From Candidatus Undinarchaeota archaeon (GTDB taxonomy: Archaea; SpSt-1190; JASMDC01): a stretch of 21,732 nucleotides of DNA. The notes under the pieces were generated by a model. That model did not search any database, was not told where the DNA came from, and saw nothing but the letters and a program-made list of their open reading frames with translations. This document shows, piece by piece, positions 5,336 to 13,564 of the stretch. The stretch spans positions 1-21,732 of the forward strand of contig CAZFHY010000020.1 of the NCBI GenBank assembly GCA_964519305.1, read 5' to 3'. How positions within the stretch are numbered: the stretch's first letter is position 1; each line of letters opens with the position of its first letter. A program made the position numbers and the translations under genes.

Positions 5336-5992
5336 ATGGGTGACGCGGACGATGGAAAAATCAGGGTGCGCGAGACCAGTACGGAGCCGGACACCCAAGA
5401 AGAACCGAGACCAGAAAAGGCTACACGGGACGGCAAATCCGACACACGCATCGAAGACTTGAGGAATAGCCTCGATGAGCAGGCGCGCGAAAGCAAAGAA
5501 CAGCTCGACCGGCTAGTTCGTGTCCAGGCCGACTTCGATAACTTCCGCAAGCGTGTCGAACGCGATCGGGAGGAGTCCGTCAAGACCGCTGCCGAGGGCC
5601 TCATACGCAGGATCCTCGATGTGGTCGACAATCTTGAGCGTGCGATCGAGCACATGCGGTCCGACGAGCGTGCGCATGAGCACACTCGTGGCGTGGAGAT
5701 GATCAAGGACCAGCTCTTTGGTGTGCTCACCGTAGAAGGCCTCAAGGAGATGGAGTGCCTCGAAGAACCTTTCAATCCACTCTACCATGAGGCCATAGCT
5801 CGTGAGACTGTAGAAGGTATCGATGCGGAGACTATCTCGGAGGTGTTCCAGAAGGGCTACATCCTCAAGGGCAGGGTCATCCGCCACGCTCGCGTCAAGG
5901 TATCCGTACCGGGGTCCTCAGGAGACGGGTCCGGTAAAGAGAAATCATCGACTAATCCTAACGAATCACAGAAGAAAGACAAGGAGGAATGA
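5336..5992 (+). CDS. grpE: Nucleotide exchange factor GrpE
   Basis: [25 protein letters not shown] and FQKGY...[10 protein letters not shown] motifs. Directly upstream of dnaK. ATG 5336 follows an AT-rich promoter region and GGAG. Confidence 0.95.
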
Positions 5993-5994
5993 AC

Positions 5995-7839
5995 ATGGCT
6001 TCGGATAAAATCATAGGAATCGACCTCGGAACCACCTTCTCCGCTATGGCGGTGATGGAGGGCGGCAAGGCGACCATCATCCCCAACGCTGAAGGGGAGC
6101 GCACCACGGCCTCCGTGGTGGCGTTCACAAAGGATAAAGAGCGCCTGGTGGGGAGCATCGCCCGCCGACAGGCCATCGTGAATCCCGACCACACGGTGTA
6201 CTCGATCAAGCGTGAGATGGGCACTAAGCACACAGTGAAGATCGACGACAAGAAGTACACACCGCAGGAGATATCCGCAATCATCCTTCAGAAGCTCAAG
6301 AAGGATGCTGAGGCATATATCGGACAGCCCGTATCTCAAGTTGTACTCACCGTGCCTGCCTACTTCAACGACTCGCAGCGCCAAGCGACCAAGGACGCTG
6401 GCAAGATCGCCGGCCTAGAGGTCCTGCGCATCATCAACGAGCCAACAGCGGCCGCACTCGCATACGGTCTTGACAAGGAGGGCACTCAGACCGTGCTCAT
6501 CTTCGACCTGGGCGGTGGCACCTTCGATGTGTCGATCCTCGAGATCGGTGACGAGCTCTACGAGGTCAAGGCCACGAGCGGCAACACACGTCTGGGCGGC
6601 GATGACTTCGATGAGCGCGTCATGAACTGGCTGGCCGACGAGTTCAAGAAGCAGGAGGGTATCGACCTGCGCAAGGACAAGCAGGCCCTCCAGCGGCTCA
6701 AGGAAGCCGGGGAAAAGGCCAAGATCGAGCTGTCGAACGTCACGCAGACTACCGTGAACCTCCCGTTCATCACTGCTAATCAGGACGGCCCCAAGCACCT
6801 CAACATCACCCTCACCCGGGCGACGTTCGAGAAGCTCGTTGACGACCTCCTAGAGAAGACCATGGAGCCGATAAACGCTGCCCTCAAGGACGCGGAGATG
6901 ACCGAAAAGGACATCGACAAGATCCTGTTGGTAGGCGGTTCCACACGCATCCCCAAGGTGCAGGAGCTGATCAAGAAACGTCTGAAAAAGGATCCGTCCA
7001 AGGAGATCAATCCCGATGAGGTCGTCGCCATGGGCGCCGCTCTTCAGGGAGGAGTTCTCTCTGGCGATGTCAAGGACATAGTCCTTCTCGACGTCTCACC
7101 GCTCACCCTGGGTATCGAGACGCTAGGGGGTGTCCGGACACCGCTCATCGAGCGTAACACCACCATCCCCGTCACCAAGTCGGAGATCTTCTCCACGGCG
7201 GCAGACAACCAGACCAGTGTGGAGATCCACGTGCTCCAGGGAGAGCGCCCCATGGCGGGTGATAATATGACATTGGGCAAGTTCCACCTCGTAGGCATTC
7301 CGCCCGCACCCAGGGGTATGCCTCAGATCGAGGTCACCTTCGATATTGACGCCAACGGTATCGTCAACGTCTCTGCCAAGGACCTGGGGACTGGTCGGGA
7401 GCAGAAGATCACGATCACTGCCTCGACGAACCTTTCCAAAGATGAGGTGGACAACATGGTGTCCGAGTCCAAGGAATACGCGTCCCAGGACCAGGAGCGT
7501 AAGGAGAAGGTCGACCTTATCAACGAGTGCGACTCCCTCGGATACTCCATGGAGAAGACCCTCACTGATCTAGGTGACAAGGTGGACGCGGCCAAGAAGG
7601 AATCGGTAACTAAGGTCATCGAGGAACTGCGTCAGGCCGTCAAGGACGAGGACGTGGCCAAGATGAAGGAGCTGAAGGACAAGCTGATGCAGGAAATGCA
7701 TCAGATCTCGTCTGAGCTCTATCAGCAGGGAGCACCGGGCGCCGGCGCCCCCCCTCCGCCCGGAGGCGATCCGGGGGCCTACGGCAACAACGTCAATCCC
7801 GACGATGTTGTGGACGCCGACTACGAGGTAAAGGACTAG
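5995..7839 (+). CDS. dnaK: Molecular chaperone DnaK (Hsp70)
   Basis: [44 protein letters not shown] and [19 protein letters not shown] at 5982-5987 favours ATG 5995; ATG 5989 overlapping the grpE stop is an alternative. Confidence 0.99.
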
Positions 7840-11330: not shown

Positions 11331-12017
11331 GTGAAGGGCACGGAAAATGAACGGGCTCGTATCTGTGCGGTGGTAGCCGCCGATACGGTCGATGCGATGG
11401 TGGACCGGGCCATGGAGGCAGTAGAGGACGCCGACCTCGTTGAGTTCCGTATCGACCATCTTATCTCTCTTGAGCAGCTTGATGGACTGAAGGAGTACGC
11501 CGCTCTCCCGGCGATCCTGACCCTCCGGTCCGCTACACAGGGCGGAAAGAGTGAACTGACAGGGGACGCGCGTCGGACGGTCCTGGAGCGCATTATACAT
11601 CTCGGACCGGCGTACATCGACCTTGAGTTCGGGAACGGTGACAATGAGCTGATTGCGACCGCCAAGGACGCTGGAGTGGGCACCATCCTCTCTTTCCACG
11701 ACTTCGAGGGTACTCCCGAAGGGATCTCGGACATCGCTCAGGAGATGGCGGGCACTGATGCCGACATCATCAAGCTGGTCACCACTGCTGGCTCATGGAG
11801 GGACGAGCTCGCGTTGCTGACGCTTGATCAACGATACACCGAGCGAGGAATCGTCGCCTTCTGCATGGGCGAACTCGGCGTGCTATCCCGCGTTCTCTGT
11901 CCACTAATCGGTGGGCGGTTCACATATGCCTTCGCGGGCAGGAGTACGGCCAATGGCCAGATTTCGTTATCAGAGCTACGAAATATGTTTAATAACGCTC
12001 ATTTGTACGGCGAATAA
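11331..12017 (+). CDS. aroD: Type I 3-dehydroquinate dehydratase
   Basis: ADLVEFRID, ILTLRS..QGG, YIDLE, ILSFHDF..TP, ADIIKLV (Schiff-base Lys), MGELG..SR, FTYA and GQI motifs. Confidence 0.92.
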   Translation: MKGTENERARICAVVAADTVDAMVDRAMEAVEDADLVEFRIDHLISLEQLDGLKEYAALPAILTLRSATQGGKSELTGDARRTVLERIIHLGPAYIDLEFGNGDNELIATAKDAGVGTILSFHDFEGTPEGISDIAQEMAGTDADIIKLVTTAGSWRDELALLTLDQRYTERGIVAFCMGELGVLSRVLCPLIGGRFTYAFAGRSTANGQISLSELRNMFNNAHLYGE

Positions 12018-12040
12018 CGTAGAAATATATACAATCCTAC

Positions 12041-12057
12041 CGGAAGGTATTTATACC
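12041..12057 (+). promoter_or_regulatory. BRE/TATA promoter of the leader-microprotein locus
   Basis: CGGAAGGTATTTATACC with TTTATA at 12050-12055, implying a TSS near 12080. Confidence 0.55.
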
Positions 12058-12080
12058 ATACCGTGCTAGACTATAGCATA

Positions 12081-12275
12081 ATCATTCCCGGAGCAGGACC
12101 ATATGATTGCGTATACAAGAGGAAAGGTATTGGTACCGATCTTTATTATTGCGCGCAATCATGCCTGCATGCGCTGGTTGTAGCGCAAGGGGATGATGAA
12201 AACAACGCCGCGATTGTTTTTTGACCCTCTTTCTAAGACGCCATACGGCTAACAGTCGTTCCCGTCGCGGCGTTG
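12081..12275 (+). ncRNA. Candidate structured leader RNA or sRNA (three-way junction plus T-tract hairpin)
   Basis: Hand-found helices 12081-12089/12189-12197, 12093-12097/12164-12168, 12103-12111/12154-12162 and 12170-12175/12182-12187. Hairpin 12199-12220 runs into T6. Alternative 11-bp pairing 12203-12213/12265-12275. I recognise no known family. Confidence 0.45.
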
Positions 12276-12351
12276 GGGGCGCACGCGCCGATATCCGAAC
12301 TCCACGAGATAACCGAGAACACGACAAGGACGACACAAGGAGGTAATGACT

Positions 12352-12489
12352 ATGTCACTTGAAGAGACCATGGAACTTATCATAAACGTCATGCAATTCG
12401 CTGACTCGTGGGAGAGCCGCCGCGCTCAGGCCCCGGAGGAACAGGCCAGTGCCCCGCTCTTCCTCGCATACGAAGGAATGCTCTCCTGA
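12352..12489 (+). CDS. 45-aa microprotein A: MSLEETMELIINVMQFADSWESRRAQAPEEQASAPLFLAYEGMLS (not in the ORF track)
   Basis: SD AAGGAGGT upstream; 30/45 aa identical to the adjacent paralog with mostly synonymous differences. In-frame ATG 12346 is an alternative start. Confidence 0.85.
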   Translation: MSLEETMELIINVMQFADSWESRRAQAPEEQASAPLFLAYEGMLS

Positions 12490-12527
12490 GCAGACACACA
12501 CCATCAACGACACAAGAGGAACAGATC

Positions 12528-12665
12528 ATGTCAATGGAAGAGACTATGGAGCTGATCATCGACGTAATGCAGTTCGCCGACTCATGGGAGAGCCAGCGAT
12601 ACAATGAGGACACGCCGATGGCCGAGACTCCTCTCCTACTCGCCTATGAGGGCTTGCTCACCTAG
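12528..12665 (+). CDS. 45-aa microprotein B: MSMEETMELIIDVMQFADSWESQRYNEDTPMAETPLLLAYEGLLT
   Basis: SD GAGGA upstream, same length as and paralogous to microprotein A. The 85-aa ORF-track version has a spurious N-terminal extension. Confidence 0.85.
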   Translation: MSMEETMELIIDVMQFADSWESQRYNEDTPMAETPLLLAYEGLLT

Positions 12666-12680
12666 GCGAGTTATGTTCAT

Positions 12681-12797
12681 GTGCCGGGGCGGGACTCCCC
12701 TCCTTCCCCTCCCCGCCCCGAGCACTCCCTATGCGGTGGTCCGTGCGACCACACCGGACCGCCGCACCTCTTTCTCGGGCTTGGTCGGGCACCGACC
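12681..12797 (+). terminator. Three GC-rich hairpins downstream of the microproteins (3' UTR structure/terminator)
   Basis: Stems 12681-12693/12712-12725 (one bulge), 12732-12743/12755-12766 (12 bp, one G-U) and 12783-12788/12792-12797. Confidence 0.55.
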
Positions 12798-12832
12798 CCT
12801 TAATAAAGATTGGCCCCATCCTCCTTTTCAGG

Positions 12833-13564
12833 ATGCATGAGGTGTCCAAGGTCGCTAGGGCTTGGCTTGTCGTGTTTACGGCGGTCGCACTCATCCTTAC
12901 CCTAGCAGTTGCAGATGACGTTCTTGTTGAGTGCGAGGACCTGCAGGGGCGTGATTTCGACCAGTGCGTCAGGGACGCGATCGCGACCATCCCGCTAAAC
13001 CTGTCCAAGGAGATGCTCGGTTCCTGCGCGACCGTCCAGGACGAGTACCTCAGGGCAGAGTGTATAGCCATCATCGCGTATCGCCTCCTCCCCGTCGACG
13101 CGAACCGTGCACTCGACGCATGCAACTCGATCGAATCGGAGGAGCATCGGAGCGCATGCCTCGGCCTCATCGCTGCTCGACGTGCGGAGAACGATCCTGC
13201 TCTTGTCGCACAGGAGAGCGCACGACTGCCCTCCGATGAGGCCCGCATCTGGCTTGTGGCGCTCCTTCGCGATTACACTGACAGACATGGCGCTGCCAAA
13301 GGGCTCGGGTTGTGCACAACCTTCGCTCCCTCGCTCCAGCGTTATTGTGTCGACCTGAGCGTATCCTGGCTGAACACGTCCCACGCAGATCTGTGCGAGG
13401 GGATCCAGTTTCCGGACTTGAAACGACGATGCAGGGCGCGAACATCGGGGGACCTCTTATCCGAGCCCCAAGCTGATGGCACGACCTTCGCTGTTTTCGT
13501 ACTCCTGATCGTCTCTGTTGGAACACTCGGGATAATGCACATCGAGGTCAAGCACTACTACTGA
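12833..13564 (+). CDS. Secreted, C-terminally anchored Cys-repeat surface protein
   Basis: Signal peptide MHEVSKVARAWLVVFTAVALILTLAVA, five C-x10/11-C pairs and a C-terminal TM helix FAVFVLLIVSVGTLGIM. TTAATAAA lies ~30 nt upstream of ATG 12833. Confidence 0.75.
   Translation: MHEVSKVARAWLVVFTAVALILTLAVADDVLVECEDLQGRDFDQCVRDAIATIPLNLSKEMLGSCATVQDEYLRAECIAIIAYRLLPVDANRALDACNSIESEEHRSACLGLIAARRAENDPALVAQESARLPSDEARIWLVALLRDYTDRHGAAKGLGLCTTFAPSLQRYCVDLSVSWLNTSHADLCEGIQFPDLKRRCRARTSGDLLSEPQADGTTFAVFVLLIVSVGTLGIMHIEVKHYY

Follow-up and report, generated by a model that had tools for sequence, protein, structure and literature searches.

The locus and its promoter

The window analysed here, a stretch of 21,732 nt, comes from an uncultured marine archaeon with a genome of 3.6 Mb, in a phylum whose other 15 genomes compared measure 0.6-1.2 Mb. 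Its plus strand carries, in close succession, a promoter, a compact three-way junction, a hairpin that ends in a run of six T, a variable linker, a conserved block with a Shine-Dalgarno sequence (SD), and two genes for paralogous 45-aa microproteins (Table 1).

Table 1. Features of the leader region and the microprotein genes (positions in the window)
Feature	Position	Strand	Description
BRE/TATA promoter, GGAAGGTA-TTTATACC	12042-12057	+	predicted TSS 12079-12081
Three-way junction	12081-12197	+	117 nt; MFE and centroid structures agree
P1, ATCATTCCC / GGGGATGAT	12081-12089 / 12189-12197	+	9 bp, one G.U
P2	12093-12168	+	GCAGG/CCTGC, ATGATTGCG/CGCAATCAT, apical GGTA/TACC stem
P3, TGCGCT/AGCGCA	within 12170-12187	+
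Junction linkers			GGA, A, A
T-tract hairpin, GAAAACAA-CGCCGCGA-TTGTTTTT	12198-12222	+	paired 12198-12221; T6 at 12217-12222; pair probabilities 0.83-0.88
11-bp helix, 5' strand CAACGCCGCGA	12203-12213	+	part of the hairpin stem and loop
11-bp helix, 3' strand TCGCGGCGTTG	12265-12275	+	perfect complement of CAACGCCGCGA
Box C/D-type K-turn motif	12189-12227	+	T-tract hairpin inside
K-turn C helix, GGG / CCC	12189-12191 / 12225-12227	+	3 bp, Watson-Crick
K-turn bulge, GAU	12192-12194		followed by G12195.A12224, A12196.G12223, U12197.U12222, G12198.U12221
K-turn NC helix			the T-tract hairpin: U.U, G.U, then 7 Watson-Crick pairs
C box AUGAUGA; D-like UUGA	12193-12199; 12221-12224
Variable linker	12223-12264	+	contains predicted anti-SD CCTCTTT, 12226-12232
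Conserved 3' leader block	12265-12351	+	11-bp 3' strand, GC hairpin, SD AAGGAGGT at 12337-12344
ORF1, 45-aa microprotein (MSLEE...)	12352-12489	+	98% identical to the protein of genus-mate G001
ORF2, 45-aa paralogue	12528-12665	+	67% identical to ORF1; own SD

The promoter matches those of stable RNA genes of the same genome: the TATA boxes of the SRP RNA and 5S rRNA genes begin 29-30 nt ahead of the mature 5' ends, and this spacing, applied from the TTTATA at 12050-12055 that the earlier note had located, gives a start at 12079-12080. Transcription thus probably begins near 12080, exactly where P1 begins, as the note had proposed. The box is retained as TATATATACC in the genus-mate, and no BRE/TATA resembling the local consensus was seen by eye between the T-run and ORF1 (12223-12351). 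The note's remark that most other genes look leaderless also fits, in that the closest genes for which a TATA box can be recognised show a short leader or none at all. A scan for sigma-70 promoters and intrinsic terminators, which relies on a bacterial model, found nothing.

A stable, strand-specific three-way junction

The minimum free energy structure predicted by RNAfold consists of exactly the three-way junction and the hairpin behind it (−55.3 kcal/mol, z = −5.19), and none of 200 dinucleotide shuffles folded as well, the outcome that the earlier note had expected of this comparison; all helices and motifs that it described lie where it had placed them. The minus strand folds less well (z = −3.22). 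Among all stretches of 117 nt tested along the 21.7-kb window, plus and minus strand alike, the element is the most extreme (GC-adjusted z −4.47), and of 2998 random genomic windows only one was as low after adjustment for GC. Within the full leader, the P1 pairs have probabilities of 0.85-1.0, and the plus-strand consensus fold contains seven positions where one or both of two sequences form a G.U pair. The region, then, holds an RNA structure in statistical excess, specific to the plus strand.

Several further features were considered. By eye, neither an H/ACA-like pocket nor a K-turn of consensus form was found within P2, and a pseudoknot drawn by eye between the P2 bulge and the P3 loop (ACCA/UGGU) is broken by changes in the genus-mate at 12099-12102. 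An internal duplication of the promoter and the P2 apex is weak (p = 0.033). Coding readings were rejected as well: in a 26-aa ORF at 12103-12183, five changes in the genus-mate, read from the alignment, alter three codons, all with a change of amino acid, and no position of 12141-12183 varies, synonymous ones included, while a 53-aa ORF at 12063-12224 has no Pfam match.

The element is known from a single genus. A covariance model built on it (R1) recovers it from two of 151 archaeal genomes, its own included, and finds no homologue in the other 149; the count is two of 17 both in the phylum and in the class, which comprise the same genomes here. BLAST on 41 genomes and microprotein-based scans of genome and metagenome contigs returned only the variant of the genus-mate. 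The search against Rfam 15 that the note had called for produced no family: there were no matches at gathering thresholds across the whole window, and at E<=10 (4227 families, 11950-12400) no usable one, with four sub-threshold matches comprising two C/D snoRNA families, one scaRNA and one Drosophila cis-element. A tRNA/tmRNA search yielded nothing usable. The element is not a divergent 5S, SRP or RNase P RNA, all three of which are present elsewhere in the genome above cut-off. It is single-copy by BLAST and by the covariance model, which dismisses a repeat or MITE, and a phage or plasmid origin was rejected after searches of plasmids, phages and viral contigs gave no match (in viral contigs, for one 21-nt pattern). 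A literature search judged by title did not turn up this RNA, which is weak evidence of its being unpublished.

Conservation and variation

Comparison with the genus-mate, the sole sister species, delimits strongly conserved blocks. Against a mean identity of 87.5% over the 6.1-kb locus and of 64-82% at third codon positions of five flanking genes, none of 18 positions differs in 12081-12098, two of 105 in 12118-12222 and three of 87 in 12265-12351; the linker 12223-12264 differs at 11 of 42 (74% identity). To judge from this alignment, the element is far better conserved than neighbouring third codon positions. In environmental contigs, the majority of variants lie at 12229-12320, and one such variant, X11, carries A12200>G and T12221>C, both pair-preserving.

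The substitutions largely respect the fold. With eight changes in the 117-nt junction, the sister sequence reaches an energy of −49.3, as did only 2.5% of 1000 random eight-mutation sets; folding energy is preserved better than in 97.5% of random sets for the 117 nt and 95% for 142 nt. None of nine changes breaks a consensus pair, and three of them (U12102>C, U12140>C, C12211>U) exchange G.U and G-C; in the minimum free energy structure of the reference genome, the TT>CA change at 12107-08 breaks pairs inside P2 at both positions. Covariation can be assessed only between two sequences because the element is single-copy and found only in its own genome and the genus-mate: of 52 predicted pairs, none shows a double change and three a one-sided, wobble-preserving one.

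This pattern bears on two readings without any switching. One holds that the RNA is a passive 5' stabiliser, a structural leader that would shield the short mRNA against 5'-to-3' decay, and the start of P1 at the predicted first nucleotide and the great stability of the fold accord with it. However, loops and junctions are near-invariant too (the 2/105 above), which is more than a stable stem needs, and the 11-bp helix and the complete K-turn motif described below would be left unexplained, so that we consider it improbable. The other takes the conservation to reside in the DNA, as operator palindromes or internal promoters, or to be chance, and regards the RNA fold as incidental. In P2, the 5' strand varies (7 of 19 positions changed) and the facing 3' strand is invariant, so that the conservation of the latter may have a reason other than P2, and it is in this invariant half that a perfect 12-bp palindrome, ATTGCGCGCAAT (12148-12159), and an AT-rich TATA-like run, CTTTATTATT (12141-12150), are found. 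Such an account sits poorly with a strand-specific fold that is a 1-in-3000 genomic outlier, with RNA-library contigs that begin upstream of 12141, at 12096 and 12126, and with substitutions that preserve folding energy; we regard it as very unlikely.

Mutually exclusive helices behind the junction

The T-tract hairpin differs from that of the sister species by one change in the loop region, C12211>T, which is also the sole change in either strand of the 11-bp helix, where it keeps a G.U pair. The two structures share a strand and, as predicted in silico, exclude each other, as the earlier note had observed, and their complementarity is non-random. An 11-bp complement arose in two of 2000 dinucleotide shuffles when the element was compared with the shuffled downstream leader and in one of 2000 for the hairpin only (P about 0.001). 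Forcing the long helix costs the leader little (−90.9 to −92.8 vs −94.6 kcal/mol for the minimum), and its probability in the free ensemble is about 0.12. In silico, the hairpin and 11-bp conformers differ by about 2-4 kcal/mol in both species (1.8-3.7). Trans targets of the hairpin loop are not indicated, its 11-mer occurring three further times over the two genome strands, at chance level.

The case for the T-tract as a functional signal, which the note had suggested, is weakened. The T6 is there, and runs of this length or longer are rare: long ORFs contain 0.013 of them per kb, and the 100 nt that follow stops 0.25 per kb; on the other side, T12221>C in X11 breaks the run, converting G12198.U12221 to G-C, and the tract is spanned by contigs.

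A compact three-way junction whose linkers are short and whose junction, P3 and P1 are near-invariant, followed by mutually exclusive helices, is also what a metabolite or ion riboswitch of a new class might look like, with the junction as aptamer and the hairpin and T-run, or the 11-bp helix, as expression platform; the lack of a match to any known class leaves room for it. Yet the element turned up in one genus only, none of its pairs shows a compensatory double change between the two sequences, and it sits ahead of family-less 45-aa proteins with no link to a metabolic or transport gene; since the genes that it would regulate are two orphans, the metabolite reading is unsupported. Moreover, P1 does not overlap the 11-bp helix, so there is no evident path from aptamer to platform except via the K-turn. 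We consider this proposal, which takes up the note's riboswitch-like reading, quite unlikely.

A box C/D-type K-turn motif

Around the T-tract hairpin lies a box C/D-type K-turn motif that the earlier note had missed. As read from the letters, it is complete, with all consensus positions present. Its C helix draws on the 3' strand of P1, so that the K-turn and P1 cannot coexist, and the hairpin serves as its NC helix; the T12221>C change in X11 turns the D-like box into a canonical CUGA and puts G-C at 4b:4n. Two of the sub-threshold Rfam matches cover exactly 12189-12227, namely, snoR4a (19.5 bits, gathering 50) and snoPyro_CD (13 bits, gathering 45). The motif was recognised after the fact, and a generic K-turn pattern is expected about 0.002 times per 300 nt of one strand. 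Genome-wide, it is one of 14 matches to a pattern of C box, D box and 3-bp stem, roughly the chance number by our own arithmetic, and one of 53 matches to a generic K-turn-hairpin pattern, which is not enriched over three shuffles (36-46).

In archaeal l7ae leaders, the operator bound by L7Ae is described as a K-turn with a GAU bulge and tandem G.A pairs, and the protein is said there to bind other mRNAs too; the K-turn operators treated in detail in these accounts are simple hairpins beside the SD (Daume et al. 2017, PMC5539422; Huang, Ashraf and Lilley 2019, PMC6298567). By the rules set out in PMC6298567, the present motif, with G:C at -1b:-1n and U:U at 3b:3n, should fold only with protein. 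L7Ae, encoded in this genome at C1:179770-180042, is a candidate partner by analogy; no convincing K-turn could be drawn by eye in the leader of that gene itself. Thermodynamically, the 9 bp of P1 are much stronger than the 3-bp C helix, and the SD lies about 110 nt from the K-turn.

The microproteins and the probable continuity of the transcript

Few sequences of the locus are conserved as well as the microproteins, which are, to all appearances, specific to the lineage. ORF1 and ORF2, which in their N-terminal halves differ mostly at synonymous sites, are the only two copies in the genome; neither has a Pfam family, a search of 1.84 bn representatives returned one cluster, the ESM Atlas contained no usable match, and an AF2 model, a two-helix hairpin with pLDDT 79.6, is uninformative. 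Upstream, the predicted anti-SD pairs with the SD with a probability of 0.62-0.87 in the reference genome, whereas a different SD partner is predicted in the sister species. The unpaired probability of the SD rises from about 0.01-0.15 to 0.2-0.75 when the 11-bp helix forms.

Contigs of relatives cross the T-run: X15 at 12096-12353, X9, flagged as 'probably DNA', at 12126-12449, and X16, tiling 12126-12518. The run is bridged in three of three RNA-type runs, by contigs in which transcript ends are not resolvable and DNA within RNA libraries is not excludable (X9 being the flagged case). The segment 11900-12088 is uncovered in four runs, which is uninformative because the relatives may be too diverged there. 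In a more distant copy, the P2 apex, ORF1 and ORF2 follow one another as they do here, and 214 unlike letters stand where this sequence has 213. Co-transcription of the element with ORF1 and ORF2 seems probable on this basis, and the bridging contigs fit a long leader. The earlier note had left the choice between a cis-regulatory RNA and a ~140-nt small RNA co-transcribed with the microproteins; its long-leader component gains from contigs that join the element to ORF1.

The main rival is a small RNA gene in its own right, about 140 nt long, from the TATA at 12050 to the T6 at 12222, whose stable non-coding product might act in an L7Ae-containing RNP or as a trans regulator; read-through, or a weak separate promoter, would then account for the expression of the microproteins. 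The element is laid out like the 5S rRNA gene of this genome, with a TATA near −30, a terminal helix in which the first nucleotides pair with the last, and a T6 directly after; the T6 immediately behind the hairpin resembles the 5S terminator, so a discrete small RNA is possible. T-runs of six or more occur in the 100 nt after stops at 20 times their frequency inside ORFs, and the divergent linker between two conserved blocks is what would be expected between two units. Against it stand the RNA-type contigs that bridge the run in all three RNA-type runs and the X11 variant that interrupts it, as do the K-turn, which needs the GA-CCC beyond the run, and the 11-nt complement, which lies downstream of it. 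Furthermore, 12223-12351 has no visible promoter of the local consensus, and there is neither a second genomic copy by the covariance model nor more than three further occurrences, over both strands, of the 11-mer complementary to the hairpin. On balance, we think a separate small RNA unlikely, while taking it seriously.

A possible three-state leader switch

The reading that we prefer, with a probability of about 40%, is a cis-acting, multi-state leader switch upstream of the two microproteins, perhaps read by L7Ae. Plus-strand RNA starting from the BRE/TATA near 12080 would form a 5' leader of about 270 nt for a lineage-specific operon of two microproteins, and the three mutually exclusive pairings around 12189-12227 would constitute a conformational switch. 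In one state, P1 would close the 117-nt junction, the adjacent hairpin would form, and the SD is predicted to be paired. In a second, the K-turn would assemble from the 3' strand of P1 (GGG-GAU-GA-U) and the UGA-CCC just past the T-run, with the hairpin as NC helix; this state would depend on a protein that binds K-turns, such as L7Ae, and would open P1 and occupy part of the predicted anti-SD. In a third, the 11-bp helix (12203-12213/12265-12275) would dissolve the hairpin and leave the SD more open. The most likely output would be the initiation of ORF1 translation, partial termination at the T-run being conceivable as well; the assignment of on and off to these states is inferred.

It is conceivable, if rather unlikely, that the element represents an undescribed class of archaeal RNA switch, a three-state leader toggled by a protein or a small molecule, in which the closing strand of a junction sensor is shared with a K-turn and a long-range helix. 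Such a switch would give the Undinarchaeota-like lineage its first described cis-regulatory RNA; few such RNAs have been characterised in archaea. A K-turn strand that doubles as the closing helix of a junction would make for a more elaborate protein- or ligand-responsive switch than the operators formed by simple hairpins. The leader would also offer a handle on two orphan microproteins, and the small size of the element lends itself to direct testing in vitro.

Comparison with known systems

Four known systems resemble parts of the element. The 5S rRNA gene of the host, located at C1:192444-192559 (84.5 bits), matches it in length (about 117 nt) and likewise has a terminal helix of 9 bp, a three-way junction, a TATA near −30 and a trailing T6; in contrast, RF00001 does not match the element, whose arms, at 76 and 18 nt, have different proportions. 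Three-way-junction riboswitch aptamers, such as those for purines and TPP, also have two arms joined by short junction strands above a closing P1, close to the promoter and followed by alternative helices, but the element has no match at E<=10 among the 4227 Rfam families, a narrow taxonomic range and no metabolic gene. With archaeal box C/D sRNAs (snoPyro_CD, RF00095) it has in common the C box AUGAUGA, a D-like UUGA or CUGA and a 3-bp GGG/CCC terminal stem. Unlike them, it has only 21 nt between the boxes, folded into a hairpin, which leaves neither C'/D' boxes nor space for guides of 10-12 nt, whereas the host's own C/D candidates, with C, C'-like and D boxes, read GGCGATGATGA...CTGAGCC and have 47-49 nt in between.

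The fourth system, the l7ae leader, differs in that the element does not lie upstream of l7ae and has its SD about 110 nt away rather than adjacent, and in that, compared with these operators as described in PMC5539422 and PMC6298567, it shares its K-turn strand with P1 and its loop with the 11-bp helix. What the two have in common, on the same accounts, is the GAU bulge with tandem G.A pairs and the placement of a K-turn in the 5' leader of an SD-bearing mRNA, here in a host whose nearby genes look leaderless or short-leadered.

A structured RNA ahead of two microprotein genes

A real, conserved, structured RNA of no known class lies upstream of ORF1 and ORF2, two tandem microprotein genes. 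On re-reading, the motifs and helices described in the earlier note lie where it placed them, to the base, and both the MFE and the centroid structure of the 142-nt element (RNAfold) are exactly its three-way junction plus hairpin. The MFE, -55.3 kcal/mol (z = -5.19), is equalled by none of 200 dinucleotide shuffles, the comparison that the note had proposed, and the reverse complement folds more weakly (z = -3.22). To guard against choosing a segment post hoc, MFE was regressed on G+C over 117-nt windows drawn at random from the genome, 2998 in all: 12081-12197 has a GC-adjusted residual of -4.47 sd, lower than any other segment scanned on either strand of the 21.7-kb window, and just one of the 2998 folds as low. 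The second-strongest fold in the window, 7646-7782 on the minus strand (GC-adjusted z down to -4.0), is antisense, inside the 3' part of dnaK (5989-7839). A perfect 12-bp palindrome, ATTGCGCGCAAT, occupies 12148-12159; the P2 apex AAGGTATTGGTACC (12124-12137) resembles the element's own promoter AAGGTATTTATACC (12044-12057; p = 0.033 for the local alignment when compared with shuffles), a likeness that is probably due to chance.

Features of the locus, its environmental relatives and the calibration genes (window coordinates unless a contig is named; changes are relative to the genus-mate genome G001)
Feature	Position	Strand	Remark
TATA motif TTTATA	12050-12055	+	sequence
P1, ATCATTCCC / GGGGATGAT	12081-12089 / 12189-12197	+	base pairing in sequence
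P2, long irregular hairpin	12093-12168	+	sequence and RNAfold
P3, 7-bp hairpin	12170-12187	+	sequence and RNAfold
Junction linkers GGA, A, A		+	sequence
Hairpin GAAAACAA-CGCCGCGA-TTGTTTTT	12198-12221	+	immediately 3' of P1; sequence
T6 closing the hairpin	12217-12222	+	sequence
Alternative 11-bp helix, CAACGCCGCGA / TCGCGGCGTTG	12203-12213 / 12265-12275	+	perfect complement; sequence
Predicted K-turn, C helix GGG / CCC	12189-91 / 12225-27	+	sequence
Predicted K-turn, bulge GAU	12192-94	+	sequence
Predicted K-turn, tandem pairs	G12195.A12224, A12196.G12223	+	sequence
Predicted K-turn, next pairs	U12197.U12222, G12198.U12221	+	sequence
Predicted K-turn, non-canonical helix		+	hairpin 3' of tandem pairs; sequence
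Segment	12081-12098		0/18 changed
Segment	12099-12117		7/19 changed
Segment	12118-12222		2/105 changed
Segment	12223-12264		11/42 changed
Segment	12265-12351		3/87 changed
X15 (wetland RNA library)	12096-12353		one 258-nt contig
X16 (marine RNA library)	12126-12251, 12222-12362, 12356-12518		tiling contigs
X9	12126-12449		one contig
Type I 3-dehydroquinase gene			PF01487; upstream of element
ORF1	12352-12489		45 aa; own Shine-Dalgarno
ORF2	12528-12665		45 aa; tandem paralogue, 67% identical to ORF1; own Shine-Dalgarno
GC-rich inverted repeat GGGGCGGG...CCCGCCCC	12686-12719		after ORF2, without T-run
Next gene	ATG 12833 (region 12801-12835)		~30 nt after TAATAAAGA; apparently leaderless
5S rRNA gene	C1:192444-192559		T6 directly after gene
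SRP RNA gene	C42:144-445

No Rfam family matches the element, and the true 5S, SRP and RNase P RNAs sit elsewhere in the genome, which rejects it as any of these. The riboswitch label of the earlier note is unsupported: a metabolite riboswitch is a less likely reading, favored by the shape of the RNA and by nothing else.

The SRP RNA and 5S rRNA genes, which serve well to calibrate promoters and terminators here, carry GAAAGG-TTTATAA and TATAAAAA, which start 29-30 nt ahead of the mature 5' end. The element promoter, GGAAGGTA-TTTATACC, has the same form, and the same spacing places the predicted start at 12079-12081, at the first base of P1, as had been proposed. The TATA is kept in G001 (TATATATACC), the spacer varying at 12069-12072; between 12223 and 12351 no BRE/TATA of this type was seen by eye. 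Several neighboring genes have their TATA boxes 24-50 nt ahead of the start codon, so that a leader of ~270 nt would indeed stand out. The main rival reading, an independent small RNA of ~140 nt, draws on the 5S-like layout of the gene. Runs of at least six Ts are uncommon in this genome: 0.013/kb within 2042 long ORFs, 0.25/kb over the 100 nt past ORF stops and 0.11/kb over the 300 nt ahead of starts.

Downstream, the differences between ORF1 and ORF2 in their N-terminal halves are mostly synonymous, and between ORF1 and its G001 orthologue 5 nucleotides but only 1 residue differ; by this pattern of divergence, therefore, both are real genes. They are also orphans, with no Pfam match, one match in a word-indexed database of 5.8 bn, one cluster when 1.84 bn representatives were searched by profile, and no third copy in the 3.63-Mb, 42-contig genome, whose contig C20 opens with the 21.7 kb of the window. 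The AF2 model predicts a two-helix hairpin; both proteins share two conserved stretches, the N-terminal helix EETMELII.VMQFADSWE and PL.LAYEG.L at the C terminus. The GC-rich inverted repeat after ORF2 may mark the operon end.

Conservation, distribution and environmental relatives

In BLAST searches of 41 genomes, G001 was the source of the sole further distinct element sequence, and microprotein-based scans of genome_contigs and metagenome_contigs gave three loci, all with the G001 sequence across the element region. R1, a covariance model built from the two sequences, found one copy in the genome studied, the G001 copy and nothing further among 17 genomes of the phylum, and 2 positives among 151 archaeal genomes, the genome studied included; nothing was found in plasmid, phage and viral collections. 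Both genomes (3.63 and ~3.8 Mb) exceed the 15 other phylum/class genomes (0.6-1.2 Mb) three- to sixfold in size, reflecting either a branch of a DPANN phylum with unusually large genomes or possibly a fault in placement or binning (stated contamination 4.3%).

Across the 6.1-kb locus, the two genomes are 87.5% identical, with an identity of 64-82% at third codon positions in five flanking genes; the 100-nt window 12127-12226, at 98%, lies beyond the 99th percentile of the locus. Judged from this alignment, nucleotide-level constraint acts on non-coding sequence here. Two ORFs were rejected as its cause, one of 53 aa (12063-12224) and one of 26 aa (12103-12183), where five G001 changes fall in three codons, all amino-acid-changing. 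Third codon positions within ORF1 reach 91% identity, against 64-82% in the flanking genes, which hints that RNA-level constraint extends into it.

The 9 changes in 12081-12222 leave every pair of the consensus fold intact, a partly circular count, the consensus coming from the same two sequences; three of them swap G.U and G-C pairs, which works on the plus strand only. For the covariation that the earlier note proposed to look for, the homologue retrieved was that of G001, and none of the 9 changes is compensatory. In a non-circular test, the G001 fold energies, -49.3 (117 nt) and -53.8 (142 nt), were attained by just 2.5% and 5%, respectively, of 1000 random mutation sets matched to G001 in transition and transversion numbers. 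Counting against the structure are TT>CA at 12107-08 in G001, which costs two pairs of the MFE fold, and P2, whose 5' strand varies opposite an invariant 3' strand.

Part of the stretch is matched in 20 public runs, eight of them probable sources. Six have an RNA record; another two, the metatranscriptomic libraries X9 and X10, bear the flag 'RNA? (probably DNA)'. Four runs were compared at no less than 80% likeness. The X15, X16 and X9 contigs all span the T-run, and in the four runs no contig covers sequence upstream of 12096; among the differences listed, a cluster lies at 12229-12320 and almost none within 12126-12222. These contigs, which give no ends, strand or level and come from RNA libraries that may contain DNA, hint that the element and the microprotein genes are co-transcribed. 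Another copy in X9, more distant, retains 12113-12143, followed by 214 unlike letters (213 in the window) and pieces of ORF1 and ORF2; the association therefore predates the genus pair. In a variant from the DNA run X11, A12200>G and T12221>C both keep hairpin pairs, and the latter breaks up the T-run, suggesting that the conserved feature is the hairpin pair and not the T-run.

A putative K-turn and a possible leader switch

Two weak Rfam matches to C/D families both span exactly 12189-12227, and we therefore read this segment as a candidate K-turn, with boxes AUGAUGA ... UUGA (CUGA in the X11 variant). A box C/D guide RNA was rejected, with only 21 nt between boxes, no C'/D' boxes, and scores far under gathering. 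Elsewhere in the genome, two candidate box C/D sRNAs (GGCGATGATGA ... CTGAGCC; C2:85602 and C9:78534, both plus strand) enclose a C'-like GATGA(T/C), their boxes being 47-49 nt apart, and a second K-turn-like hairpin, C11:107209 (minus strand), has the GGG-GAT-GA ... GA-CCC frame of the element, with stops in all three frames of that strand. The motif was recognised after the fact: a generic K-turn-hairpin pattern is matched 53 times genome-wide, compared with 36-46 times in each of three block shuffles, and a C/D-with-stem pattern has 14 matches, about the chance expectation by our own arithmetic. The motif alone is therefore worth ~0.002 per 300 nt and, by itself, is a suggestive supporting sign, not proof.

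Three segments have mutually exclusive predicted pairings: 12189-12197 is either the P1 3' strand or the bulged strand of the K-turn, 12203-12213 forms the hairpin or the 11-bp helix, and C12226-27 belongs to the C helix or to the predicted partner of the ORF1 Shine-Dalgarno. Shuffling the downstream leader gave a complement as long as the 11-bp one in 2 of 2000 trials (1 of 2000 with the hairpin alone). In both species, the modeled hairpin and 11-bp conformers are 1.8-3.7 kcal/mol apart of ~95, and the predicted unpaired probability of the Shine-Dalgarno rises from ~0.01-0.15 to ~0.2-0.75 in the 11-bp conformer; its predicted partner is not the same in the two genomes, which weakens the release detail. 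Together, the exclusive pairings, close energies and Shine-Dalgarno opening lead us to read the leader as a multi-state switch that would act mainly on translation, with L7Ae as a possible reader of its state. The caveat already made in the earlier note holds: with its alternative strand downstream of the T-run, the leader is not a classical antiterminator. At present the best reading is a leader switch that contains a K-turn, at a probability of roughly 40%. The element is compact and testable, and its taxonomic range is narrow.

In the passages of PMC6298567 on K-turn rules, a G:C pair at -1b:-1n blocks metal-ion folding, and ion-induced folding takes 3b = C or 3n = G. The element has G:C at -1b:-1n and, at 3b:3n, U:U, which is neither of the two; by these rules, the predicted K-turn should fold only with protein. 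In Sulfolobus acidocaldarius, according to PMC5539422, the operator combines a GAU bulge and two G.A pairs with a 4-bp stem and one single G-C pair, and L7Ae was found on other mRNAs as well. The K-turn operators in these parts of PMC6298567 and PMC5539422 are simple, and the element is unlike them.
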